A stretch of DNA of 64,000 bases from an uncultured delta proteobacterium (GCA_963804955.1 CAWDSQ010000001.1:96001-160000); one strand, 5' to 3'. Positions 32,686-46,962 are shown, counted from the stretch's first letter. The notes: generated from the sequence alone by a model not told the origin. Program-made: numbers and translations.

Positions 32686-33168
32686 CTATTTAACCAGCGG
32701 TATTTCCGCGGCAAGATCATAGCGCACGATGGCGGTGATCTTGTTTTCAAGCTGCATGTACCGCGCGGCCTTCCTGGCGCCCACTGCCTCGACCACTCTC
32801 GGTATGCAGGCCCGAAGCTGCTTGACCCGCTCAGCCTCAAGCTCAAGGTACTTGTTGGTCAGCTCGAGGGCTTTTTTATCGGTCATCGTGTCATAATTTT
32901 TCCCGTAATCGTCGATCAGCTTCAAAAGCCGCTCATTGACCTTGCCGAGCTCTTTCTGGTAGTTGTCATACAGCGGCCAGAACACTTTTGCGTCTTTTTT
33001 CGTGAGCTGCATGTTGTCGGCGATCAGCAGCTTTTTATCAGCCTTCAGCTTGTCTTTCACCATCTGCATCGTGTCTGCCGGCTTTTCCTGTGCCGCTGCG
33101 GGCATGGCCGCAGCCAGCAGAAAAACCGCTGCCGCCAGAATAACAACTGTTTTTGCTACTACGCGCAT
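32686..33168 (-). CDS. Conserved periplasmic helical hypothetical protein
   Basis: Signal peptide (AAA-Q); KKLLIADNMQLT..FWPLYD.YQ..QLENK; AAGGAG SD. Confidence 0.8.
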   Translation of the reverse strand: MRVVAKTVVILAAAVFLLAAAMPAAAQEKPADTMQMVKDKLKADKKLLIADNMQLTKKDAKVFWPLYDNYQKELGKVNERLLKLIDDYGKNYDTMTDKKALELTNKYLELEAERVKQLRACIPRVVEAVGARKAARYMQLENKITAIVRYDLAAEIPLVK

Positions 33169-33310
33169 GACAATCTCCTTTTCAAGTACGGCTAGTAGTT
33201 TTTTGCCCCACCATAATGCATAGCTCTCGTACCGGTCAAGCTGTTTGTTGCTCCGGCTCACAGGTTAAACATTTTGACATTTCTATCCGTTATTCATATA
33301 GTCCAGCCAT

Positions 33311-33401
33311 ATGGACAACATATCCCGGCCTTCGCTTAGTGCTTGATGAACAGATGCGGTTTGAAACTCTGCTGCTTGAAATTTCGACATACTTTGGATA
33401 A
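33311..33401 (+). pseudogene. N-terminal remnant of a GAF sensor paralog
   Basis: Reads YPGLRLVLDEQMRFETLLLEISTYFG*, matching LEERLEFETLLANLSAHF of the downstream kinase. Confidence 0.55.
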
Positions 33402-33665
33402 GACAAAGCTTGAAGAATACAAGTATCAACCGCGAAACTAATTTTGCTGGCCACGACATCGCGAAATGCATCGCATGAAAGCTTTGAATAAACGATGTCG
33501 TGACCATTTTTTAAGCAAACGATGACCTGAACGTTAGCAGCTATGGACTTTCAGATGCGCTACGGGAGATGACGGGCTGCCCCTTGCCAGTGAACATCAA
33601 TGCCCGGCGGCACGGCTGATCCAGCAAGAAAACAGCAACCGCCTGCTTGAAGCAATCCAAACAGG

Positions 33666-34910
33666 ATGCGGGTGAACATGACCAAGCCCGAGCGTGCGCA
33701 GGAGGCACTTGAAGAGCGGCTGGAATTTGAGACGCTGCTGGCCAACCTGTCTGCGCATTTTATCAATCTGCCAACCGACCGGATAGACAGCGAGATCGTC
33801 GACGCTCAGCGCCAGATCTGCCAATGCCTTGATATTGACCGCTCCACCCTGTGGCAAATCCCTGAGGATGAGCCAGGGGAAATGCTGCTGACGCACGTGC
33901 ATCAGCCCCCGGGAAGCACGCCGCCCCCGGATCGGATGAGCTTGGGGGAGCTGTTTCCCTGGGCAATGCGGCAGGTCATGAGCGGAAGCGTTTTTACCTT
34001 CTCGAAAATTTCAGATTTTCCGCCGCAGGCAGCAATCGACAGGGAGAACCTCCGCCGCTACGGCACCAAGGCCGATGTGCTGGTCCCGCTTTCAAGCGGG
34101 GAAGGGCCGGTCTTCGGCCTGTTGACCTTTGCGGTTTTGCGGGAGGAGCGCGTCTGGACCGAGGCGGTTGTGACGGGGTTCAAGCTTATCGCGCATGTTT
34201 TTGCCGGCGCGCTTGTCCGCAAGCGGGCCGATGAGGAACTGCGGCGCCACGAGCAGGAGCTCGGCAGGCTCACCGGACGCATTATCAATGCCCAGGAAGA
34301 GGAGCTTCGGCGGCTTTCCCGGGAGCTGCATGATGATCTGACGCAGCGGCTTGCGGCCCTGGCGCTTGATGCGGCGCTGATTGAAAAAGAGCTGCATCCC
34401 GCGCAGCCGCGGGCTGTTAACGCCCTCAGGGACATGCGGGCCAGGCTGACCGAGCTTGCCGGGGAAGTCCACAACCTCTCCCGCCAGCTGCACCCCTCCA
34501 TTCTCGACGATCTGGGCCTGGCGCAGGCGGTACAGGCTGAATGCGCCGCCTTTGTCAGGAAAACCGGCATTGACCTGTCCTTTACGCCCCAGGACCTGCC
34601 GGATACACTGCCCCAGAACATCGCCCTGTGCCTGTACCGCATAATCCGGGAAGGGCTCCAGAACATTGCAAAACACTCGGGGGCCGCCGCGGCCGCTATC
34701 GCGCTGCACGGGCTCCCGGACGGCATTCGTTTGGTTGTCAAGGACAACGGGAGCGGATTTGACCCGGAAACGGCAAAGCAGAAGGCCGGCATCGGCCTGT
34801 CCAGCATGCGGGAGCGGGTGCGGCTCGTAAACGGCGCCATAGCCATTGCCGCAAAGCCGGGACAGGGTGCTGAAATTCAGGTCTTTATTCCATTAGGGGA
34901 CGCCCCATGA
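33666..34910 (+). CDS. GAF-domain sensor histidine kinase (HisKA_3, NarX/UhpB type)
   Basis: RELHDDLTQ, EGLQNIAKHS, DNGSGF, GIGLSSMRER; no TM. Confidence 0.93.
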   Translation: MRVNMTKPERAQEALEERLEFETLLANLSAHFINLPTDRIDSEIVDAQRQICQCLDIDRSTLWQIPEDEPGEMLLTHVHQPPGSTPPPDRMSLGELFPWAMRQVMSGSVFTFSKISDFPPQAAIDRENLRRYGTKADVLVPLSSGEGPVFGLLTFAVLREERVWTEAVVTGFKLIAHVFAGALVRKRADEELRRHEQELGRLTGRIINAQEEELRRLSRELHDDLTQRLAALALDAALIEKELHPAQPRAVNALRDMRARLTELAGEVHNLSRQLHPSILDDLGLAQAVQAECAAFVRKTGIDLSFTPQDLPDTLPQNIALCLYRIIREGLQNIAKHSGAAAAAIALHGLPDGIRLVVKDNGSGFDPETAKQKAGIGLSSMRERVRLVNGAIAIAAKPGQGAEIQVFIPLGDAP

Positions 34911-35548
34911 CCAAGCCGCGGCTGCTCATAGCAGACGACCACAAAATTTTTGTTGAGGGTATGAAAAGGCTGCTCAGCTCTGACTTTGACATCGCCGGTG
35001 TGGCCGAAAACGGCCGTGAGCTGGTAGCGGCCGCGGAAAAGCTTCGGCCAGATGTCATCGTTGCCGACATTTCCATGCCCATGCTCAATGGCATAGACGC
35101 CGTGCGGCAGATCAAAAAAGCGCATCCTGAAATCACGGTGGTATTTCTCACCATGCACCCCGATGCAGCCTATGCGTCAAGCGCCCTGCAGGCGGGCGGG
35201 TCGGGCTATGTGCTGAAAAGCTCCGCCCCCGATGAACTCATTACCGCCATCCGCAGGGGCCTTAAGGGAAAAACCTATGTAACGCCCCAGATTGCCGGAA
35301 AGCTCCGGCATGCCGCCGAGCCCGGTTCCCGGGCCGCCAACGGGACTGGCAGCAGCCTTTCTTCCCGGCAGCACGAAGTGCTGCAGCTGCTGGCGGAAGG
35401 ACATGCCGCAAAAGCCATCGCCAGTATTTTGAATATATCCATAAAAACCGTTGAGTATCACAAGTACCGGATGATGGAGGACCTGGGCATCAAGACAACG
35501 GCGGAGCTGATCCGGTATGCCGTGAAGCACGGCATTGCAGGGCCCTGA
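34907..35548 (+). CDS. NarL/LuxR-family response regulator
   Basis: ADDH, DISMP, LSSRQHEVLQLLAEG, KTVEYHK; ATGA overlap with kinase. Confidence 0.95.
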   Translation: MTKPRLLIADDHKIFVEGMKRLLSSDFDIAGVAENGRELVAAAEKLRPDVIVADISMPMLNGIDAVRQIKKAHPEITVVFLTMHPDAAYASSALQAGGSGYVLKSSAPDELITAIRRGLKGKTYVTPQIAGKLRHAAEPGSRAANGTGSSLSSRQHEVLQLLAEGHAAKAIASILNISIKTVEYHKYRMMEDLGIKTTAELIRYAVKHGIAGP

Positions 35549-35701
35549 TTACCCCCCCCCCAGGAAAAGCATTCCGCAAAACTAGGATTTCTCCTAATTG
35601 ACGTTTCACCGCATTGTTCTATATATATCAATAACTCAGTAGACAGTCCCGATCCATCCATCAACGGCGGTCCGCCGGTACCGGCACAGACGAGGTGATT
35701 C

Positions 35702-36106
35702 ATGGCAGCCGAAAGAATAATTCTTGCGGAGTCCCATCAAACCTTTGTGGGCGTGGTTCGCCTGATTCTCGAGGAAACGATGAGCGCCCTGTTCATAGTC
35801 GCCGACGAGCGCTCTCTTATCGAAGCCGTTGCAGGCACACAATTCGACCTGGTCATTGCGGACCTGTCATTTCCGGCATGTTCGGGGGGGAATGTCGTCA
35901 GACTGCTGCAAAAACTGAAGCCGGAACTCAAGTCCATCATTCTGAGCGTCCATGACGAGCAGACGGTGGTGAATGAATGCCTTGCCGCGGGGGCGAAGGG
36001 CTTCGTGCTCAAGAGAGCGGCAGCCACCGACCTGCTTCCGGCCGTGGAGGCGGTTTTAAAGGGCGGAATGTATGTTTCACCCTATTGCCGCGAACAGGGC
36101 GCATGA
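35702..36106 (+). CDS. Stand-alone receiver-domain protein (NarL-like REC)
   Basis: ILAESH, DLVIADLS, GAKGFVLK. Confidence 0.85.
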   Translation: MAAERIILAESHQTFVGVVRLILEETMSALFIVADERSLIEAVAGTQFDLVIADLSFPACSGGNVVRLLQKLKPELKSIILSVHDEQTVVNECLAAGAKGFVLKRAAATDLLPAVEAVLKGGMYVSPYCREQGA

Positions 36107-36244
36107 CTATACAGAAGCCCGACGGAAGAGCCGGCAGGGAGCCTTGAAAAATTCAGGCAATGAAGGCGCCGCTGTGCGGGCATAGCAAATAGATTTGACG
36201 TGAACCATAACGTTTTTTTACAACAACCACGGAAAGGGCGGCGT

Positions 36245-36949
36245 ATGAAAATGCAGGGAACAAAATGGGCAGGCATGTTTGCGGTACTGGCGGGCGTATG
36301 TCTTTTGGCGGGGGCCTGCGCGACGATGCAGGCGCGCAGCACGACAACAGCGGGATTTCTGGGCGACTATTCCCAGCTCAAGGAGGGCGGGGAGGGCAAG
36401 GCCCTGCTCGTCTATGTCGACCCGGCGGCGGATTTCAAGGCATATCCCCGTATTATGATGGACCCGGTCAAGCTCTATGCTTCATCGGAGCACAGCATGC
36501 AGAATGTTTCTTCGGAAGACCGGCAGAAACTTTTAAACTATGCCGATGCCACCATTCGTGAACATCTTGCCAAATATTATACCTTCGTGAAGAGCCCGGG
36601 CCCCGGCGTCATGCGCCTGCGCGTAGCGATAACCGAGGCCGAGAGCTCCTCTGTCGTGCTTGATACCGTCTCCACCATCCTGCCGGTGGGCCTTGCCCTG
36701 GCCGGCCTTCAGACGGCTGCGACGGGCTCGTGCTCTTTTGTGGGCTCTGCCGGGCTTGAAGTCGAGATGCTGGACAGCCAGACCGGCAAGCGCCTGGCTG
36801 CGGCTGTCGATCGCCGGGTAGGCGGCAAGGTGAGCGGAGAGGGCGATAAATTTGACGAATGGCGCACGGTGAAGAGCGCTGTCGATTACTGGGCCGGCCG
36901 GCTAGAGCTTCGCCTGGGCGAAAAACTCGGCAGAATAGCCACACAGTAA
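36245..36949 (+). CDS. DUF3313-family lipoprotein (copy 2)
   Basis: Lipobox AGAC; highly similar to copies 1 and 3. Confidence 0.85.
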   Translation: MKMQGTKWAGMFAVLAGVCLLAGACATMQARSTTTAGFLGDYSQLKEGGEGKALLVYVDPAADFKAYPRIMMDPVKLYASSEHSMQNVSSEDRQKLLNYADATIREHLAKYYTFVKSPGPGVMRLRVAITEAESSSVVLDTVSTILPVGLALAGLQTAATGSCSFVGSAGLEVEMLDSQTGKRLAAAVDRRVGGKVSGEGDKFDEWRTVKSAVDYWAGRLELRLGEKLGRIATQ

Positions 36950-37039
36950 GCGTACAAGAACCACCGGCGCGAAGGCCCAGGCCGCACTACAGAGGCGCGG
37001 GGCGGGTTCGCGGGGTCATTAGCAGGAAAGGCGCACGGC

Positions 37040-38527
37040 ATGAAACAGCGATCCTTCAGGATGTTTTCCAGTATGCTCTCGCTTACCGGCCTGTTCATTG
37101 CGGTTTTCAATATCGCACTGATAGTCGTTCTGTCGATTGCCGATGCCCTGTCCGCGGGCACACACCCGTATGCCGACCTGGTGATCTGGATCATGCTGCC
37201 GTGCGGCGTTTTGTTCGGCGCGGCCCTGATCATTGCCGGCATCCGGCGGCAGCGACGCACGAAAGGCGGGAGCCGCTTCCCGGTCATCGACCTTAACGAT
37301 ACCGGGCTGCGCAAAAAAGCGCTCGGCCTGCTGACGGTCCTGGTGCTGCTGTCGGTGCTCTATGCCTTTTCCGGGTATAAGGCCTATGAGTTTTCCGAAT
37401 CAAATACATTCTGCGGAGCCTGCCACACCGTGATGGGGCCTGAAACCAGGTCCAACGCCTACTCGCCACACGCACAGCTCCTGTGCACCAACTGCCACGT
37501 GGGGCCCGGGGCAAAGTACTATTTCATCTCCCATCTGAAAGGAGCCCGGGAGGGCTTCAATTACCTGCTCGACAGATACAGCCGGCCCCTTCATACGCCG
37601 ATTGCGGCCCTGCGTCCATCCGAGCATATATGCGAAAACTGTCACGGCCCCAAGTACCAGTTAAACGAGCGGCTTGAAAGCCGCACCTATTTCATGTCCG
37701 ACAAGGAGAATTCACGCAAGAAGATCAACCTGCTGTTTAAGCCGGGTAAAACGGACACCACGCTTGAGCAGCCGCCGAAAATGCACTGGCACTCAAGCAC
37801 CACGGCTGAAATCGAGTACGCCGATACTGACCCGAAGCGGATCGAGATTCCGTGGATTCGCGTCAAGCGGCTCGACGGAACCGTGCGCACCTACCGCCGC
37901 GACGACTCGAAGCTCTCGGACGACGACGCGGCAAAGGCCGGGACGAGGCGCATGGACTGCATGGACTGCCACAACCGGACGGGCCATCCCTTTAACCCCC
38001 CGGCGGCTATTCTGAACGCCATGCTCGGGGCGGGGTTCATTGATACGGGCCTGCCGGAGATTAAGCATGTCGGAGTCCAGACACTTGAAGCCTCCTATGC
38101 TTCCCAGGAGGAGGCAGCCAAAGGCATAGAAACGGCAATTCGTGACTTCTATCGCAAGGCCTATCCTGCTGTTGCAAAGGACAAGGAGGCGGCAATCACC
38201 TCAGCGATCACGGCGCTGCAGGGCGCCTACAGCCGCAACTACGACCCGCATATGAAGGTGAGCTGGCGCAGCTTTGGCAGCAATCAGGGGCATATGTATT
38301 CGCCGGGCTGCTTCCGCTGCCATGACGGCAAACACCGAAGCGATGACGGCGCTGTTCTGTCGCAGGACTGCAGCCTGTGCCACCTGCTGATCGAGCGTGT
38401 CCCCGGCCAGGATACTGCCGGAAGCAATCAGGCCGAGATCCGCGTGATGGATTATCCGCACCCCGTTGATATCGGCGACAGGTTGCAGACAATGATGTGT
38501 ACGAAATGCCACGGCCCATCATCGTGA
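37040..38527 (+). CDS. Membrane-anchored NapC/NirT-like heptaheme cytochrome c
   Basis: Three N-terminal hydrophobic helices; FCGACHTVM, CTNCHVGPG, CENCH, CMDCH, CFRCH, CSLCH, CTKCH. Confidence 0.9.
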   Translation: MKQRSFRMFSSMLSLTGLFIAVFNIALIVVLSIADALSAGTHPYADLVIWIMLPCGVLFGAALIIAGIRRQRRTKGGSRFPVIDLNDTGLRKKALGLLTVLVLLSVLYAFSGYKAYEFSESNTFCGACHTVMGPETRSNAYSPHAQLLCTNCHVGPGAKYYFISHLKGAREGFNYLLDRYSRPLHTPIAALRPSEHICENCHGPKYQLNERLESRTYFMSDKENSRKKINLLFKPGKTDTTLEQPPKMHWHSSTTAEIEYADTDPKRIEIPWIRVKRLDGTVRTYRRDDSKLSDDDAAKAGTRRMDCMDCHNRTGHPFNPPAAILNAMLGAGFIDTGLPEIKHVGVQTLEASYASQEEAAKGIETAIRDFYRKAYPAVAKDKEAAITSAITALQGAYSRNYDPHMKVSWRSFGSNQGHMYSPGCFRCHDGKHRSDDGAVLSQDCSLCHLLIERVPGQDTAGSNQAEIRVMDYPHPVDIGDRLQTMMCTKCHGPSS

Positions 38528-38591
38528 CCGGCTGCGACAGGGTAATAGACACAGGCCTGACCCTTCTTGATACATACAGGAAACAAGGGAT

Positions 38592-40780
38592 ATGAAAAAA
38601 AGCATACAACTTTGCATCATTGCCGCCGCAACACTGGCGAGCCTCCTTGCATGCTTCTTCGCCCCGGCGCCAGCCCCGGCTGAGGAGTCAAGCTGCTTAA
38701 CCTGCCACCTGTGCGGTCCCATGCTCGTCAAAAACCGCGGCGTGGCCACGCCCATAGTCTCGGCCATGCAGTCAGGGGCCGGCTGAGGCGGTGCCGTGGC
38801 TCAGTTGGAGCCGCACATAAAAGTGCTTGTTTCCCGGGAGTTTCTTGCCACCGCCCATGGTCAAATCGCGTGCGGAACCTGCCACGGCGGCGACGCTGCC
38901 AGCATGAGCAAAGCAGCCGCTCACAAGGGGATGGATGCATTTCCCTCCATAACCAATCCGCAGAATACCTGCGGCGCCTGCAAGGACCCGAAAGCGGCAC
39001 AGCACCGTGACATCGCCGCCTCGGCCAAAGATTCCCTGCACGCCAGCCTTGCCACCTTTACCGGGGTGCTCAAGAGCCGCGCGAATATGGAAAAATGGGA
39101 AACAATCGACGAGGCTCGCAAGAACCACTGCGCCGCCTGTCACACGAGCTGCGGCGGCTGTCATGTGAGCCGTCCCAAATCAGCGCAGAAGGGCTTTATT
39201 GCGGGGCATATCTTTAAAAAGACCCCCGATCAGGTCAATCAGTGCACCGCCTGCCACGGCAGCCGCGTGGGCTATGAATTTTCAGGCCAGCGCGGCAGGG
39301 GTGATATCCATGCGTCACAAGAGAGTATGACCTGCTCCTCCTGCCACAAGGCAAAAGAGATGCATGCTGCGGCAGCCAAAGACCTGCCGGGCCGCTATCA
39401 CCTGCCGGAGGCGGCGCGCTGCGATGATTGTCACAAAGATATGGAGAAAAAGGCCGTGCGGCAGCACGCCGATCATATCGGCAAGGTGCAATGCCAGGTG
39501 TGCCATTCGCAGACGTATGTCAACTGCTACAGTTGCCATGTGGGCAAAGACAGCCAGAACACGGCCTATTTCCAGAACCGTCTTGAAGTTGAAACCATGA
39601 AAATCGGGCTCAACTATGACGCTGCAGCTCCGGGCGCCGGCTACCGCTTCATGCTGGTGCGCCACGAGCCGTCGTATCCGGAGATGTTCGATTTCTACGG
39701 CAAGGATCTCTTCACGAACTTCGGCAAGGTGCCCACCTGGAAGCGGACCTCGCCTCACAACATCCAGAAACTCACCTGGCAGGCCGCCAGCTGCAACCAC
39801 TGCCACGCTAATCGCGAGCTGTTCCTTGCAAACGCCGATCTTGCAGACTATGAAATAGGCAGCAAACAAGGCGGTTGTTGTTCCCGACGCCGACATGCCG
39901 AAAGCGGTGCAAGACAGCAGCAAGCTTGACATCGACATATCCCGGGTCAGAACCGGCATGGTGGTTGACGCCCGGTGGCTGCATGACAACAGCAGGCAGA
40001 AGGATCTGGTCGTCATCGATGCCCGCAGCCGCGCTGCCTACGACAAGGGCCATATCGAAGGCGCCATTTCGCTGGACCCCCTGGTGAGCGGCCTGCGCAC
40101 CGGCCCCAAAGCGAAGAACCCCTTCTCGCTTGAAGACCATGCCAAGATTGCCGGCATTTTCGGCAGCAGGGGAATAGCAGCCGAAGATCATATCGTGGTG
40201 TATGACCAGAACGGCACCATGGCGGCAGGTCTGCTGTCTGTTCTGCAATGGGCCGGCGCTGCCAATGTCTCCTATTTGAACGGCGGCATTGAGGGGTGGC
40301 ATCTGGCCGGCTTCCACACGAGCACTGAGCCGTATACCCGTGAAGCGCGCACCTTCGGAGGAACCGTCAGGCCGGAGCTGGTCGTCAGCAGCGCAGAGCT
40401 TACCGGGCTTCTGAAAAAGAACACGGTGGTGCTTATCGATACTCGCGCCATTGATCGGGCCAGGGGACTGACACAACATGAGCTGGCCGGCCGTGCAGGC
40501 GCTATTGCCGGATCGGTCAATATCCCGCTCGGGGCTTTCTACATGGAAAACGGCTTTTTGAAGCAGCCGGTCCGAGCTGCTGTGGATGCTAGCCACCTAT
40601 GGCGTCACGCCGGACAAGACCGTCATCACCACCTGCGACACCGGCATTGCTGCCGCAGATGCCTTTTTCGTCCTTCGGTATCTTGGATTTTCCAACGCCC
40701 GGGTGCATGAAGAAGCCTGGGTGGTGTGGTCTAACACAGTGGATATGACGCCGCTTCAGTGCGGCAGTGGTATTTTTTAG
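38592..40780 (+). CDS. Putative selenocysteine-containing multiheme cytochrome c fused to tandem rhodanese (in-frame TGA 38784-38786; frameshifts near 39860 and 40570)
   Basis: Signal peptide + CLTCH, SGAG-TGA-GGAV in frame with 9 further CxxCH and one CGACK; rhodanese domains IDAR..YDKGHIEGA..YLNGGIEGW and CDTGIAA. Confidence 0.8.
38787..38816 (+). promoter_or_regulatory. Putative bacterial SECIS element
   Basis: GTGGCTC-AGTTG-GAGCCGC hairpin; loop begins after a 16-nt spacer from the TGA, with G at loop position 2. Confidence 0.7.
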
Positions 40781-40790
40781 TATAGTAATT

Positions 40791-40939
40791 GATGTGTGCG
40801 TAATAAGTCGTCACCCCCGGTGAAAACCGGGGCACAGGGTAGGGGCACGAAGCATCGTGCCCCCCACATAAGAATCCTGGATACCGGCTTTCGCCGGTAT
40901 GACGAATTCGTTGAACTTTCGATTTTTTACGAGAGGGTC
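40791..40939. repeat. Composite REP element (CGTC-type pair enclosing a GTAG-type hairpin)
   Basis: CGTCACCCCCGGTGAAAACCGGGG ... GTAGGGGCACGAAGCATCGTGCCCC ... CTGGATACCGGCTTTCGCCGGTATGACG. Confidence 0.75.
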
Positions 40940-41043
40940 TTAAGTAATTGCAGTTGTAAGAATATGGATTCAATTATATAAACATATACATAATGTTACA
41001 CCAATGCTCACTTGGGGAAAAGAATACTTTTCAGGAGATACCG

Positions 41044-42232
41044 ATGAAAACGAGCGTCGCAAAGACCGTGAGGACCACCCCTTTAAAATTATTACCCTTT
41101 TTCCTGATCGCAAGCCTGTTTACTAGTGCTTCCTTCGGGGTGCTCGAAAGAGCAGAAGGCGCCGGCCCTGCCGCCGCCGGACGTTGAGGTTATCGATGTG
41201 GTGCAGAAAGATGTGCCCATCCAGTCCGAGTGGATCGGCACGATCGACGGCATGGTGAACGCCACTATCAGGGCGCAGGTATCGGGCTATCTCATCAAGC
41301 AGAATTACAAGGAAGGCTCGCTGGTAAAAAAAGATGATGTGCTGTTTGAAATAGACCCCCGGCCGTTTCAGGCTGCCTTTGACCAGGCGCAGGCCGAGCT
41401 TGCGCAGCGGCAGGCCCTCTGGGGCACGTCAAAGGCCAATCTTGCGCGCATCCGGCCTCTGGCAAAGAAAAATGCCGTGAGCCAGAAAGACCTCGACGAT
41501 GCCGTGGGCGCTGAGCAGTCGCTGCAGGCCGGCGTTCTTGCGGCCAAAGCAGCTTTCGAAAAAGCGGCGCTTGATCTTGAATTTACAAAAATAAAATCAC
41601 CCATCGACGGCATTGCAGGCCTTGCCGCCGCACAGATCGGCAACCTCGTGGGGCCGCAAACCGCCGACCTCACCACGGTTTCCACGGTTGACCCGGTGAA
41701 GGTCTATGTGGCGATCAGCGAGCAGGAATACATGCGGTTCATGCAGGATAGCGCCCCGCACAGAACCCCTGGCGCTGGACCTTGTGCTGTGCCGACGGCA
41801 GCCTGTTTCCGCATAAGGGGAAAGTCGCTTTTGCCGACCGGCAGGTTGATGTGAAGACCGGGTCGATTCGCGTTGCCACCGAGTTTCCCAATCCCGGCAA
41901 TGTGCTGCGGCCGGGCCAGTATGCGAAGGTCAGGGCGTCCGTCAAAACGCGCACCGGCGCGCTGCTGGTGCCGCAGCGGGCGGTTGCCGACATGCAGGGC
42001 AGCTATCAGCTGGCCGTCGTCGGCAAGGACAATAAGGTGAGCGTGCGTCGCCGTGAAGGTGGCCGAGCGCATCGGCTCGCTCTGGATCATCAGCGAAGGC
42101 CTGCAGCCCGGCGACCGCGTGATCGTGGAAGGCATTCAGAAGGTCAAGGACGGCATGACGGTTGTGCCGAAACTTTCAGGCGACAGCCCTGCACCAGCGC
42201 CGGCGCCTGCGCCGGCACCCGACAAGAGGTAG
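41044..42232 (+). CDS. RND efflux periplasmic adaptor subunit (several frameshifts)
   Basis: Lipobox SGC; IRAQVSGYL, LFEIDPRPF, IKSPIDG, FPNP..LRPGQY, GLQPGDRVIVEG. Confidence 0.9.
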
Positions 42233-42238
42233 CCAGCC

Positions 42239-45200
42239 ATGTCAAAATTCTTCATCAATCGCCCTATTGTGGCCATGGTTATCTCGATCTTCATGGTCAT
42301 CCTCGGCGCTGTGGCCATGTCGGGACTTCCCATCGCCCAGTTTCCCAACATTGTTCCGCCGGCTATCCAGGTGAATGCCGTCTACACCGGCGCCGACGCC
42401 GTCACCGTGGAGCAGTCGGTGGCTACCCCGATCGAGCAGCAGATGTCCGGCGTTGACAATCTGGACTACATGTACTCCGTCAATGCCAACGACGGTTCCA
42501 TGACCCTCTATAACTACTTCGAACTGGGGACCAACGCCAACACCGACCAGATCCTCTCCCAGATGCGCCAGAACCAGGCGTCATCGCAACTGCCGGCCGA
42601 TGTCAACAACTACGGTGTTACGGTGGCGAAATCGACCTCGGCGCCGTACCTCATGTTCGCTCTCTCTTCTCCCAACAACACCTACGACAACGTCTTTCTG
42701 GCCAACTACTCCTACATCAACATCAACGACCAGATGACCCGCATCAAGGGGGTCGCCAGCGTCTCGGTCTTCGGCGCCGGCCAGTACGCCATGCGGTATC
42801 TGGGTCCGGCCGGACCAGCTTGCCAAGCTCAACATCACCATCCCGGAGATCATGAACGCGGTCAAGGCCCAGAATACCGTCAACCCGGCCGGACAGGTCG
42901 GGAGCCAGCCGGTGCCGAAGGGGCAGGAGTTCACCTACACGGTTCGCGCCCAGGGGCGTCTGCAGAGCGAGGCCGAGTTCGGCAATATCGTGCTGCGGGC
43001 CAATCCGGACGGTTCCATCGTGCGGGTGAAGGACGTGGCCCGCATCGAGCTTGGGGCACAGAACTACAAACAGGAAGGGCGCCTCAACGGCAAGCCCTGC
43101 GCCCTGGTCGCCCTGTACCAGATGCCGGGAACCAACGCCATGGAATCGGCCAACGGCGCCAAGAAACTGATGGATGGAGTTGAAGAAGAGCTTCCCGCCT
43201 GACCTGGACTACACGGTGGCGCTGGACACCACCCTGGCGGTCTCCGAAGGGATAAAGGAAATCAAGAGCACCTTCTTCGAGGCGCTGATTCTGGTCATCC
43301 TGGTGGTCTTTATCTTCCTCCAGGGGTGGCGGGCCACGCTGATCCCGCTCCTGGCGGTGCCGGTGTCGCTGGTGGGAACCTTCGCGCTCTTCCCGCTGCT
43401 CGGCTTTTCCATCAACACCCTCTCGCTTTTCGGGATGGTCCTTGCCATCGGCCTGGTCGTGGATGACGCCATTGTCGTGGTCGAGGCGGTGGAGCATCAT
43501 ATCGAAAAAGGCCTGAGCCCGAAGGATGCCACGTTCAAGGCCATGGAGGAGGTGTCCGGCCCGGTCATCGCCATCGCCATCATCCTGGCGGCGGTCTTCG
43601 TGCCGACGGCCTTCATCCCCGGCATTACCGGCCAGCTTTACCAGCAGTTCGCCGTGACCATCGCCGTCTCGGTCATCATTTCGGCCTTCAACGCCCTCAC
43701 CCTTTCTCCGGCGCTCTGTGCACTGCTGCTGAAGCCGAAGGTCAAGGGAACCGGCCCGCTGCAGAAGTTCTACGACTGGTTCAACCGGGTCTTCGGCCGG
43801 GCCACCGACGGCTACGTGTCAATCTGCGGCGCCGCCATCAGGAAAAGCAAGACCAGTCTGCTCCTGCTGCTCGGGGTGACCGTCCTGGCCGGGGTAGCGG
43901 GTAAGAGCCATTCCGACCGGCTTCCTCCCCGACGAGGACCAGGGCTTTATCTTCGCCAATATCCAGCTCCCCAATTCCGCTTCGCTGCAGCGGACCAGTG
44001 AAGTGGCCCGTCAGGCCGAAGAGATCATCATGAAAACCCCGGGCGTCCAGTACTGTTCGACGATTCTCGGCTACAGCCTGCTGAGCCAGGTCAGCTAACA
44101 CCTACAGCGCCTTTTTCTTCATCTCCCTGAAAGAGTGGAAGGAGCGGAAAGCTCCGGAAGAGCAGTACGAGGCGATCAAGGCCTCCCTGACGAAAAAGAT
44201 GGGCGGGCTGCCGGGCGCCATCGGCTTCCCGTTCCCGCCACCGGCCATCATGGGGATCGGCACCTCGGGCGGGGCCACCTTCATGCTGCAGGACAAGGCC
44301 GGCAAGGATGTCGCCTTCCTGGCCGAGAACACGCAGAAATTCATCGAAGCGGCCAGGAAAAGGCCTGAACTGGCCCGGGTCACCACCACCTTCATCCCCA
44401 CCGTGCCGCAGCTGTTCGTGGATGTGGACCGGGACAAGGTGCTGAAGCAGGGGGTTGAGATCAGCGACGTCTACAAGGTCCTGCAGAGCTTCATGGGGAG
44501 CGGTTTCATCAACTACTTCAACAAATTCGGCCGCCAGTGGCAGACCTATATCCAGGCCGAGGGGGACTACCGGACCAATATCGAGAATATCGGCCAGTTC
44601 TATGTGCGCAACAAGGACGGGCAATCAGTGCCCCTCTCGGCGCTGACTTCGGTTCGCAGCATCACCGGCCCGGAATTCACCATGCGCTTCAACCTCTACC
44701 GCTCGGCCCAGATCAACGCCACCGCGGCCCCCGGCTTCAGTTCGGCCCAGGCCATGAAGGCGCTGGAAGAGACCTTTGCCCAGACCATGCCGCGGGAGAT
44801 GGGGTACGACTACAGCGGCATGTCGTTCCAGGAGAAGAAGGCCCAGAAGGGGGTCTCGCCGATGGCGATCTTCGCCTTCTCGTTCCTGTGCGTCTTCCTG
44901 ATCCTGGCGGCCCAGTACGAAAGCTGGTCGCTGCCGTTCTCGGTCCTGCTGGGAACGCCGGTGGCCGTGGCCGGAGCCTTCGCCGGCCTGCTCTTCGGAA
45001 AATTCGAGAACAACATCTACGCCCAGATCGGTCTGGTCATGCTGATCGGCCTGGCGGCCAAGAACGCCATCCTCATCGTCGAATTCGCCAAGATGGAGTA
45101 TGAGAAGGGCAAACCGCTGGTGGAAGCGACCCTGGAGGGCGCCAGGCTGCGCTTGCGGCCGATCCTGATGACCTCCTTCGCCTTCATCCTCGGCTGCGTG

Positions 45201-45380
45201 CCGCTGGCCATCGCCAGCGGGGCCGGCGCCATCTCGCGGCAGGTCATGGGGTACACCGTCATCTTCGGGATGCTGGCCGCCTCCTTCATCGCCATCTTCC
45301 TGATACCGGTTACCTATTATGTCGTGGAGAAGCTGTCTCACGGTGGCGCAAAGGCAAAAACAGAAGCGGAGGTAGTGTAA
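42239..45380 (+). CDS. HAE1-family RND permease (AcrB/MexB-like; several frameshifts)
   Basis: MSKFFINRPI, LAIGLVVDDAIVVVE, QQFAVTIA, GLAAKNAILIVEFA, RLRPILMTS. Confidence 0.95.
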
Positions 45381-45381
45381 T

Positions 45382-46962
45382 ATGCTGAGACGAATGTTAT
45401 ATTTGCTTCGAGGTCACTATCTCGCGGCTTTCTGCGCATCCCGTCATTCCGGCGAAAGCCGGAATCCAGAAAACAAGCTGTCTGGATGCCGGATCAAGTC
45501 CGGCATGACGAAACAGCTTCAATTCCTCGGAGCTTTTGGCGGTGCGATCTGTTTGGTTATTGTTGTTTCCGGCTGCGCCATCGGCCCTGATTATTTGCGG
45601 CCGAAGGTTGATGTGCCGCAGGCATGGATTACCAAAGATGGCGTTTCACCGGATGTTATCAATACGGCCTGGTGGAAGCAGTTTCAGGACCCCGTGCTTG
45701 ACGGACTCATCGAGACCGCGCTGCGCGAAAACAAAGACCTGCTCATCGCGGCGGCCCGGGTTGAAGAGTTCCTGGGGCTCTATGCCGAAACGCGCTCAGC
45801 CCTGTTTCCGCAGATCGGCGCAGGCGCAGCAGGCGGCAGGCAGCGGGTGACGAAAGAAACCCCCAATGACCTTTCCCCCGGTACGCGCACGGCCTTTAAT
45901 AACTATACCGCCATACTCAATGCCAGCTGGGAGCTTGATATCTGGGGCCGCATCCGCCGCTCCACCGAAGCGGCGCGGGCCGATCTTGTGGCCACAGAGG
46001 AGGGCAGGAGAACGGTTGTTTTGAGCCTTGTCGCGGCAGTGGCAACCACCTATATCGATCTGCGCTCCCTTGACCGGCAGCTTGAAATAGCCATCGACAC
46101 CGCAGCCTCCCGCAAGGCAAGCTATGAGCTTTTCCAAATGCGCTTTCAGGGCGGCATCATATCGGACCTGCAGCTCTCGCAGGTGCTGTCGCAGTATGAA
46201 GAATCCCTGGCGGTTATTCCCTCTATCGAAAAAAGCATAGCTTTCACCGAGCATAGCCTGAGCCTGCTTCTCGGTCGCAATCCCGGGGCCATTACCCGGG
46301 GCCGGACAATAGCCAAGCTTGCGCTGCCTGAGGTTCCCGAAGGCCTTCCTTCAACGCTTCTCGAACGGCGGCCTGATATCCTGCAGGCCGAGCAGAACCT
46401 CGTTGCAGCAAATGCCCGCATCGGCGTTGCCCGTTCACTGTATTTTCCGACCATATCGCTGACAGGGTACCGGGGGTCTGAAAGCTCCCATCTGTCTGAC
46501 CTGTTTTCCGGGCCTGCGCGTATCTGGAGCTATGCAGGGCAGGCGACCATGCCCATTTTTACCGCCGGCAGGATCGCAGGGATTGTGCGGGCTTCGGAAG
46601 CCGTGCGGCAGCAGGCGCTTTTGCAGTATGAGCAGGCGATCCAAAACGCCTTTCGCGATGTTGAAGACAGCCTTATCGACCGCATGAAATCAGGCGAGCG
46701 CCTTGATGCGCAGGCTCGCCAGCTTGATGCGCTGCGCACCTATGCCCGCGTTGCCCGCGAGCGCTTTGATGAAGGCTATACCAGCTATATTGAAGTGCTT
46801 GACGCCGAGCGGTCGTTGTTTAATGTGGAGCTTGACTATACGCAAACGCAGGCCGTGCTGCTCACATCACTGGTCAATATGTACAAAGCCATGGGCGGCG
46901 GATGGGTCAGTGAGGCTGACAGCATGACGGCAGCAGGATCTGCGGAGGGCGATAAAAAATAA
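45382..46962 (+). CDS. Outer-membrane efflux lipoprotein (NodT/OprM family)
   Basis: VSGC lipobox, WWKQFQDP, SWELDIWG, LLERRPDI, YKAMGGGW. Confidence 0.93.
   Translation: MLRRMLYLLRGHYLAAFCASRHSGESRNPENKLSGCRIKSGMTKQLQFLGAFGGAICLVIVVSGCAIGPDYLRPKVDVPQAWITKDGVSPDVINTAWWKQFQDPVLDGLIETALRENKDLLIAAARVEEFLGLYAETRSALFPQIGAGAAGGRQRVTKETPNDLSPGTRTAFNNYTAILNASWELDIWGRIRRSTEAARADLVATEEGRRTVVLSLVAAVATTYIDLRSLDRQLEIAIDTAASRKASYELFQMRFQGGIISDLQLSQVLSQYEESLAVIPSIEKSIAFTEHSLSLLLGRNPGAITRGRTIAKLALPEVPEGLPSTLLERRPDILQAEQNLVAANARIGVARSLYFPTISLTGYRGSESSHLSDLFSGPARIWSYAGQATMPIFTAGRIAGIVRASEAVRQQALLQYEQAIQNAFRDVEDSLIDRMKSGERLDAQARQLDALRTYARVARERFDEGYTSYIEVLDAERSLFNVELDYTQTQAVLLTSLVNMYKAMGGGWVSEADSMTAAGSAEGDKK
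45442..45510. repeat. CGTC-type REP inside 5' end of OM efflux gene
   Basis: CGTCATTCCGGCGAAAGCCGGAATCCAG...CTGGATGCCGGATCAAGTCCGGCATGACG, 69 bp. Confidence 0.85.

Follow-up and report, generated by a model that had tools for sequence, protein, structure and literature searches.

In Wolinella succinogenes, the periplasmic rhodanese-type protein Sud carries polysulfide sulfur to the quinol-linked reductase Psr. Reduction of elemental sulfur (S0) without molybdenum was clarified only in 2026, through the Geobacter pentaheme cytochrome MccSep, which contains selenocysteine (Sec) (PMC13510729). MccSep, described in August 2026, is a tetrameric periplasmic selenoprotein on which S0 respiration depends absolutely; no electron donor is named for it in the available part of that report (PMC13510729). 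Its Sec325 attacks polysulfide beside a His/Cys-ligated heme, a cleavage of the S-S bond that needs no molybdenum (PMC13510729). The available part of a May 2026 review of prokaryotic selenoproteins names three cytochrome-related families (ExtKL, a GSU2204-family CXXCH protein and OTR), tables the OTR family as having Sec members, and lists five rhodanese forms with Sec inside the rhodanese itself; a multiheme-rhodanese family is not among them (PMC13188914). Here we describe a gene pair from an uncultured delta proteobacterium (GCA_963804955.1 CAWDSQ010000001.1:96001-160000). This stretch of 64,000 nucleotides (nt) is called the window, and coordinates are window positions; the genome has 4.26 Mb in 36 contigs and is 87% complete. 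Gene 1 encodes a NapC/NirT-type membrane cytochrome c. Gene 2 almost certainly encodes a selenoprotein in which eleven heme sites are joined to a tandem rhodanese, and it may be a reductase of polysulfide and other sulfane sulfur.

Results

Selenocysteine decoding in gene 2

Gene 2 is not a single ORF under translation table 11. To give one protein, it needs read-through of a TGA at 38784-38786 and frame changes at ~39856-39859 and ~40569-40571. The gene and the features around the TGA are as follows.

38592..40780, + strand: gene 2, predicted Sec undecaheme cytochrome c fused to a tandem rhodanese, in three reading frames in the window
38592..38783, + strand: signal peptide, heme motif 1 (CLTCH) and Gly-rich lead-in (...QSGAG), from the translation; the upstream coding sequence is kept in 75 N-terminus-matched loci
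38784..38786, + strand: UGA/Sec codon, residue 65, motif G-x-G-U-G-G, from conservation of the TGA
38796..38814, + strand: hairpin resembling a Sec insertion sequence (SECIS), GUGGCUC-AGUUG-GAGCCGC, which starts 9 nt after the UGA

Relatives were collected by scanning one genome per species. There were 141 pattern matches and 105 confirmed relatives, and the loci analysed here are the best 80 of these relatives. The in-frame stop is TGA in 76/76 fused sequences (75 loci and the window) and never TAA or TAG. Its context is always G-x-G-TGA-G-G-x-V, with a conserved signal peptide and S-S-C-x-x-C-H upstream. The spacing from the His of heme 1 to Sec is 26 residues in 64/66 sequences and 27 in 2/66. 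TGA is also found at the same site in 16/16 remoter relatives (30-45% identity) from other genomes of the phylum, stand-alone and split forms included. Half of these 16 carry a second type of motif, E-G-E-G-TGA-A-G-A-P-P-P-V.

The 7-base pair (bp) hairpin that begins 9 nt after the UGA is paired in 94.6% of cells over 71 distinct sequences. Changes on both sides were observed in 5/7 pairs, and 0/500 column shuffles reached the pairing value. As a control the partner strand was slid by 1-3 columns, which left pairing at only 31-46%. The loop consensus is C-G-U-U-G, with A at the first place in the window, and the window hairpin folds at -15 kcal/mol. The 86-nt fold around the UGA has a z-score of -0.02; only the short hairpin is meaningful. 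The subfamily with E-G-E-G-U-A-G-A-P-P-P-V (L103, L105-L108, L115, L116 and L118) is mostly followed by a separate tandem-rhodanese gene. A different hairpin (CCUCCGCC...GGCGGA) was spotted by eye at the same distance in this G-U-A-G subfamily.

A profile search of 1.84 billion representatives, which gave many multiheme-only relatives, provided 21 distant full-length homologs that cover the N-terminal region. The Sec position is occupied by Cys in 8 of them and by another residue in 13. The genome itself encodes SelB (TIGR00475, 345 bits against a cut-off of 242) and tRNA-Sec (RF01852, 76.7 bits against 47). Because the TGA and the flanking coding sequence are conserved (76/76 and 16/16), a covarying hairpin follows, homologs have Cys at the site and the genome encodes Sec machinery, the UGA is almost certainly translated as Sec. 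What the original prediction had called a putative Sec is thus borne out.

Conservation of the multiheme-rhodanese fusion

A database search with the N-terminal 423 residues (E <= 0.001, 7998 candidates scored) found 1019 related proteins. Among the best 120 matches listed, 115 have a rhodanese Pfam domain and 114 are 605-654 amino acids (aa) long. The 119 non-self matches listed cover 75-84% of the query because the database proteins begin right after the TGA position. Their public names are 'rhodanese-like domain-containing protein', 'thiosulfate sulfurtransferase' or 'SseA'. Since these proteins are N-terminally cut 'sulfurtransferases', no public annotation includes the first heme or the Sec.

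On read-through, 66/67 complete loci encode a single protein of 690-740 aa. Sec is conserved in 66/66 of these fused proteins and the rhodanese Cys in 65/66, and all eleven heme motifs are invariant. The heme domain of the fused subfamily also has 11 invariant non-motif His. U65 is the only invariant Cys or Sec outside the motifs, joined by the near-invariant rhodanese Cys.

For a survey of the phylum, 400 other genomes were sampled and rhodanese matches listed at E <= 1e-30. A two-module profile (heme or rhodanese part) has matches in 92/401 sampled genomes, own genome included. Outside the own genome the heme module was matched 45 times. In 3 cases it shares an open frame with the rhodanese module. 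In 16/45 the rhodanese is a separate open reading frame (ORF) ~100-330 bp downstream on the same strand, and the two cases inspected are truly split. No adjoining rhodanese is listed at that threshold in 25/45, some of which lie at contig ends, and 1/45 is ambiguous. Because the heme and rhodanese modules are fused in some lineages and adjacent in others, they are likely to work together. Judged from these sequences, the fusion that had been predicted from the window alone is a conserved trait of the family.

Record titles place many carriers in Desulfobulbia, Desulfocapsa, Desulfofustis or Desulfurivibrionaceae; titles of the loci also name Nitrospirota, Rokubacteria and Binatia. Gene 2 is present in one copy in its own genome. 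Two copies per genome were seen twice, 18 kb apart on a single Rokubacteria contig (L075 and L077) and on two contigs of one metagenome-assembled genome (MAG) (L005 and L060). One fused gene (L048) lies on a 5-kb, very-low-coverage contig labelled as a Promethearchaeota archaeon MAG; this probably reflects misbinning and not a copy in an archaeon.

Anatomy and predicted structure of gene 2

The remaining parts of gene 2 are listed here, apart from the two frame breaks.

38787..39857, + strand: heme domain with heme sites 2-11, first reading frame; motifs invariant in 66 relatives
38970..39005, + strand: atypical third heme site, CGACKDPKAAQH, from the alignment
39859..40570, + strand: linker, rhodanese domain 1 and start of rhodanese domain 2, second reading frame (PF00581, E 4.5e-22)
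40571..40780, + strand: rest of rhodanese domain 2, including the catalytic loop TTCDTGIAA, then a tail of 12 residues (...LQCGSGIF); third reading frame (PF00581, E 8.8e-5)
40634..40636, + strand: codon of the catalytic rhodanese Cys (Cys680); Cys in 65/66 relatives, Ser in 1
40750..40777, + strand: putative terminator (hairpin and T run) where gene 2 ends, by consensus match only; the region has 14 such sites against 5.8 expected

The motif scan and Pfam agree with the earlier description of gene 2 as an exported protein with ten CxxCH motifs, one atypical motif and two C-terminal rhodanese domains. The atypical motif is CGACK-x6-H at residue 127. In rhodanese domain 1 Asp replaces the Cys (VVYDQNG), and this domain is inactive. 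Most relatives have plain CxxCH at the third heme site; among the 66 read-through relatives the C-x-x-C-K-x6-H form occurs only in L001-L003, and it was also found in P0002 and P0003. It is restricted to the small clade of the window, and its His, 7 residues on, aligns with the usual motif His. The site could hold a Lys-ligated catalytic heme as in NrfA, or it could be a looped-out CxxC...H site.

The signal peptide of the window (38592-38660) contains ...SLLAC, which loosely resembles a lipobox. Because L001 and similar relatives have no Cys there, cleavage by signal peptidase I is more likely than lipobox processing. Cys-Gly tails at the C-terminus are specific to clades: ...LQCGSGIF is found in the window (40745-40777) and in P0002, and ...RYPGCGY in a Desulfobacterales clade (L035-L041, L061 and L069). 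Such tails could act as a mobile thiol arm. Rfam gave no match across 36900-41100 at E up to 1. A promoter scan gave 2 sites against 2.1 expected and was uninformative.

Structure was predicted with AlphaFold2 from 113 sequences using the intact ortholog L002, whose heme domain shares 78% identity with that of the window. The whole chain has a mean predicted local distance difference test score (pLDDT) of 91.9 and a predicted template modelling score (pTM) of 0.89; ten-residue blocks around Sec have mean pLDDT 73-79. A model built from 19 sequences, with pLDDT < 50 for the whole heme domain, was discarded. The C-terminal ~260 residues (452-713) match the tandem sulfurtransferases RhdA, human MST, EanB and YnjE with Z 31-33 and a root mean square deviation (rmsd) of about 2 A, and a PDB profile search with the same residues gave tandem sulfurtransferases at E ~1e-36. 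A Foldseek search of the PDB with the whole chain was filled by rhodanese matches. In a wide structure search (VIA) the only heme-protein row listed was OTR (1sp3), a weak match at rank 50: heme domain residues 86-439 align over 248 residues with Z 8.6, rmsd 4.2 A and 18% identity.

The heme module was also compared with known families by sequence. Sequence and profile searches of the PDB returned only noise for it (NrfA at E 0.02, a reaction-centre cytochrome at E 0.4), and no PDB entry named MccSep, selenoprotein cytochrome or polysulfide reductase appeared. With NCBIfam, the heme modules of the window and six relatives stay below the cut-off of every model. The OTR model TIGR04315 gives weak local matches of 16.6 bits in the window and 34 bits in P0245 against a cut-off of 375. 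With the SseA equivalog NF008557 the window pieces score 58.9 and 22.9 bits and relatives 83-133 bits against 250. For the ExtH model NF040901 the window pieces are unlisted and relatives score 42 and 50 bits against 200, and the ExtM model stays far below its cut-off. The MccSep model NF040886 does not match gene 2 at E up to 0.01, and its best score in the own genome is 33 bits against 250. We found no paper on a Sec undecaheme-rhodanese family in the open-access literature, supplements set aside. The architecture had been put forward as uncharacterised, and these searches of NCBIfam, the PDB and the literature agree.

Gene 1 and other neighbors

Two further features precede gene 2.

37040..38527, + strand: gene 1, NapC/NirT-type membrane cytochrome c with ImcH-like architecture, ORF of 495 aa
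33666..36949, + strand: histidine kinase (HisKA_3), LuxR-type response regulator, lone receiver domain and DUF3313 lipoprotein, by Pfam

Gene 1 has seven CxxCH motifs (residues 125, 149, 198, 307, 424, 444 and 487), of which the first is CGACH. CxxxCH was sought in the whole protein and not found. The first 115 residues contain three hydrophobic segments (Kyte-Doolittle), and the NapC/NirT N-terminal region PF03264 is matched at residues 93-181 with 28.7 bits against a cut-off of 24.1. Two NCBIfam models do not reach their cut-offs, the NrfH model TIGR03153 (39.7 bits against 134.2) and the NapC/NirT equivalog TIGR02161 (19.8 against 310.6). A search at E <= 0.001 gave 1118 matches among 8000 scored candidates; these relatives are about 500 aa long and belong to the NapC/NirT family where their sources name them. 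A protein atlas look-up gave generic cytochrome names only. The identification of gene 1 as a membrane-anchored NapC-like heptaheme therefore holds on Pfam, the seven motifs, the hydrophobic segments and the named relatives. ORFs and coordinates likewise confirm that the two genes are co-oriented: 64 bp separate the gene 1 stop from the gene 2 ATG (38592), both on the + strand.

A relative of gene 1 adjoins gene 2 in 20/80 loci, in two arrangements. In the closest relatives (L001-L003) it lies upstream and co-oriented, with 69-72% identity and a gap of 58-64 bp. In 17 Desulfofustis-type loci it comes immediately downstream of gene 2 but is encoded on the opposite strand, with 30-44% identity; a contig end truncates one of the 17. 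In 12 other loci a class III cytochrome c3 lies downstream (median 78 bp), and other lineages have nothing conserved there. Flanks of at least 1600 bp were available upstream in 54 loci and downstream in 62, so some absences are undecidable. The pair had been proposed as a self-contained two-gene module. Adjacency in 20/80 loci agrees with this, but self-containment does not extend to other lineages, which have cytochrome c3 or nothing conserved. Gene 1 is plausibly a lineage-specific electron donor rather than a fixed part of the system, as far as gene order tells.

The four co-oriented genes upstream (33666..36949) are possibly associated with the pair. A few other loci (L008, L014, L053, L075 and L077) have kinase or regulator ORFs in the vicinity of gene 2. 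No molybdoenzyme gene is present among the named ORFs at 32686-36949 and 41126-46962, and no porin or other ext genes stand beside gene 2 in the window.

Frame breaks in the window copy

Two frame breaks separate the three reading frames of gene 2.

39856..39859, + strand: first frame break, a single extra base in ...ata-GG-cag, from ORFs, alignment and contigs
40569..40571, + strand: second frame break, a single extra base in ...ccg-G-tcc, from ORFs, alignment and contigs
41126..46962: RND efflux operon with membrane-fusion protein, AcrB-type pump and outer-membrane factor

Each break is a single extra base in or beside a GG pair. If the insertions are real, gene 2 would be a pseudogene in this strain and only the heme part or nothing would be made. 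Two breaks within 2.2 kb point in that direction, as does the public protein set, which holds the window's own 377-aa fragment (P0001) as a separate protein. Contigs of three independent short-read DNA metagenome runs (X1-X3) were compared over 37040-40780. A letter is missing at 39856 or 39858 in every covering contig (one in X1, two in X2, one in X3) and at 40569 or 40571 in every covering contig (one each in X1, X2 and X3); no further indels are listed across 37040-40780. These contigs come from relatives that are 90-99% identical and may be other strains, which favors the pseudogene. Apart from the breaks, however, the window gene is 69-83% identical to intact relatives and keeps all key residues.

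The neighboring RND operon is broken at similar density, which fits a systematic indel error of an indel-rich assembly. Both its adaptor and its AcrB genes are affected. AcrB is in at least four pieces in three frames, and by Pfam these ORF pieces match profile positions 1-185, 205-312, 305-540 and 647-1020. A tblastn search with the RND homolog of L011 was too distant to map frameshifts. Because the X1-X3 contigs have no extra bases and the neighboring efflux genes are similarly broken, both breaks are considerably more likely to be assembly indels than marks of a real pseudogene, and inactivation of gene 2 in this strain is unlikely. The split ORFs of the window most likely have two causes, one real recoding signal and two assembly errors.

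One ribonucleic acid (RNA) run (X20) gave contigs that resemble parts of both genes at 90-99%; one of the parts covered is 38709-38858, which spans the UGA. Their shares are small, and as contigs from an RNA library are no proof of transcription, they were not taken as evidence of expression.

Discussion

Proposed function

The sequences show the anatomy of gene 2, the decoding of its UGA, the conservation of the fusion and its fission into adjacent genes. We propose, with a probability of about one half, that gene 2 is a periplasmic reductase of polysulfide and other sulfane sulfur derived from S0, and that it may be fed here by menaquinol through gene 1. In this scheme the rhodanese Cys would take sulfane sulfur (polysulfide, S0-derived or thiosulfate) as a persulfide. 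The selenolate would then attack the persulfide to form a Se-S intermediate, and electrons arriving through the eleven-heme chain would cleave it and release sulfide. In the organism of the window, and likewise in the three relatives nearest to it, electrons may pass from menaquinol to gene 1 to gene 2; other lineages apparently use other cytochromes as a source. Substrate, direction, the relay between Sec and Cys, and gene 1 as donor are what we infer. MccSep provides a precedent as a multiheme Sec enzyme that reduces polysulfide with a Sec nucleophile (PMC13510729). DsrA reaches 25 bits against a cut-off of 393 in the own genome, 87% complete, and with MccSep also below its cut-off there, this fits a stand-alone option for sulfur respiration.

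Several observations weigh against such a reductase. Neither Sec nor Cys is found at the site in 13/21 distant homologs, and one fused relative (P0243, 715 aa, 36% identity) has Tyr at the Sec site while the rhodanese Cys is kept; the heme scaffold also occurs without a chalcogen residue at this position. Because the 11 invariant non-motif His match the 11 hemes, all hemes could be bis-His, leaving no obvious catalytic heme, and there is no conserved non-motif heme-ligating Cys, unlike in MccSep. The heme module has ~4 kDa of peptide per heme, which by a rule of thumb is typical of electron carriers and not of enzymes (PMC7096707). A gene 1 relative is not beside gene 2 in 60/80 loci, and genes like gene 1 (32-39% identity) occur elsewhere in 4/5 tested genomes without an adjacent gene 1, which shows that this family is common anyway. 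The possible strain difference of the X1-X3 contigs also counts here.

The same parts might run the other way. Sulfane sulfur, thiosulfate or sulfide would be oxidised at the Sec/rhodanese site, and the eleven hemes would carry the electrons off to membrane cytochromes and the pool of quinones. Working mainly in this sense or in both, the enzyme could be half of sulfur disproportionation, or could interconvert thiosulfate and tetrathionate. Rhodaneses are thiosulfate sulfurtransferases, and Desulfobulbia, Desulfocapsa, Desulfofustis and Desulfurivibrionaceae, the labels of many carriers, are rich in sulfur disproportionators. The sole listed structural match of the heme domain is OTR (Z 8.6), with weak TIGR04315 matches beside it, and TsdA, like other His/Cys-heme enzymes, catalyses the reaction in reverse (PMC13510729). 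But the OTR match is weak and at rank 50, the sequence fixes no direction, and with DsrA below its cut-off in an 87% complete genome this organism is no obvious disproportionator or sulfate reducer. On balance an oxidative or bidirectional role is unlikely.

A reductase or detoxifier of chalcogen oxyanions (selenite or tellurite), the role first proposed for the Geobacter ext cluster, is improbable. ExtI has been linked to selenite and tellurite reduction (PMC5877670), the rhodanese part weakly matches the ExtH model of the selenite/tellurite operon (42-50 bits against 200), and MccSep reduces selenite as well, less efficiently than polysulfide (PMC13510729). Yet this preference of MccSep for polysulfide counts against such a role, as do the ExtH and ExtM scores far below their cut-offs and a window in which neither a porin nor other ext genes adjoin gene 2.

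That the UGA is a true stop, so that two ORFs separately give a monoheme peptide of 64 residues and a rhodanese protein with 10 hemes, can be practically dismissed: public gene callers do start the protein just after the TGA, as the 75-84% coverage in the 119 non-self matches listed reflects, but the downstream ORF would have no signal peptide although heme attachment needs export, TGA stands in 92/92 sequences with never a TAA or TAG, the frame and the upstream peptide are conserved, the covarying hairpin is in the right place, Cys aligns in 8/21 homologs and the genome holds the Sec machinery.

Significance

Gene 2 appears to belong to a widespread, mis-annotated selenoprotein family that seems undescribed in print. 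If the sulfane-sulfur reductase is real, it would add a new selenoprotein family, and its gene would serve as a marker of sulfur cycling in sediments and in syntrophic consortia. It would also provide a natural fusion showing how sulfur carriers dock onto multiheme enzymes, and anaerobes carrying it would probably respire sulfur compounds without molybdenum. More tentatively, with the odds somewhat against it, the family might be a second, independently evolved class of molybdenum-free, heme-wired selenoenzymes for sulfur respiration. The catalytic Se-S couple would then consist of the rhodanese persulfide and the selenolate, placed directly where a wire of eleven hemes ends, and Sec itself might sit on or beside a heme iron. 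Such an enzyme could be the missing S0/polysulfide oxidoreductase of syntrophs and disproportionators without MccSep, linked to quinone by ImcH-like or other membrane cytochromes.

Comparison with known systems

In architecture, gene 1 resembles ImcH (GSU3259). ImcH relatives have 495-519 aa, three N-terminal helices and seven heme motifs, and gene 1 has 495 aa, three hydrophobic segments and seven motifs. A NapC/NirT-like region lies around the third transmembrane helix of ImcH relatives (PMC6295460). The first motif of ImcH is an atypical CX3CH (PMC6295460), whereas that of gene 1 is CGACH, and the likeness is drawn from the family description. NapC, NrfH and CymA are tetrahemes with a single helix, in contrast to the seven hemes and three hydrophobic segments of gene 1.

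The C-terminal part of gene 2 resembles bovine rhodanese, E. coli SseA, A. vinelandii RhdA and YnjE. In all of these, as in gene 2, the N-terminal domain is inactive and the C-terminal Cys lies in a six-residue loop, C-[DN]-T-G-x-x. The difference is that the rhodanese domains of gene 2 are predicted to be periplasmic and are covalently joined to a heme chain. Sud (1qxn) aligns with rhodanese domain 1 of gene 2 at Z 10.8. Its partner Psr is a molybdopterin enzyme with a separate membrane anchor, whereas the redox part of gene 2 consists of heme and Sec. OTR of Shewanella oneidensis (1sp3) also acts on an S-S bond, but it has eight hemes and no rhodanese where gene 2 has eleven hemes and a rhodanese, and the Sec loop of gene 2 falls outside the aligned range.

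The closest concept is MccSep (ExtKL, GSU2937-2936) of Geobacter sulfurreducens. The original prediction had drawn a parallel to the ext cluster, and this was apt, as ExtKL is MccSep, the Sec pentaheme polysulfide reductase, and its rhodanese is ExtH (PMC13510729). Both MccSep and gene 2 are periplasmic multiheme cytochromes c with one Sec and an in-frame UGA that splits the annotation; both are associated with rhodanese, and both are found in Desulfobacterota and Nitrospirota. MccSep has 5 hemes and its Sec near the C-terminus in D-G-U-P, and gene 2 has 11 hemes and an N-terminal Sec65 in G-U-G-G. MccSep has a heme-ligating Cys, whereas gene 2 has no conserved Cys of this kind and no Ig-like domain. 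The partner ExtH is a separate rhodanese-like lipoprotein; in the gene 2 family the rhodanese is fused or adjacent. The family thus holds the ingredients of MccSep, a heme chain, one Sec and a rhodanese, without detectable sequence relation to it, and is best classed as extending the theme of multiheme selenoenzyme plus rhodanese set by MccSep and ExtH.

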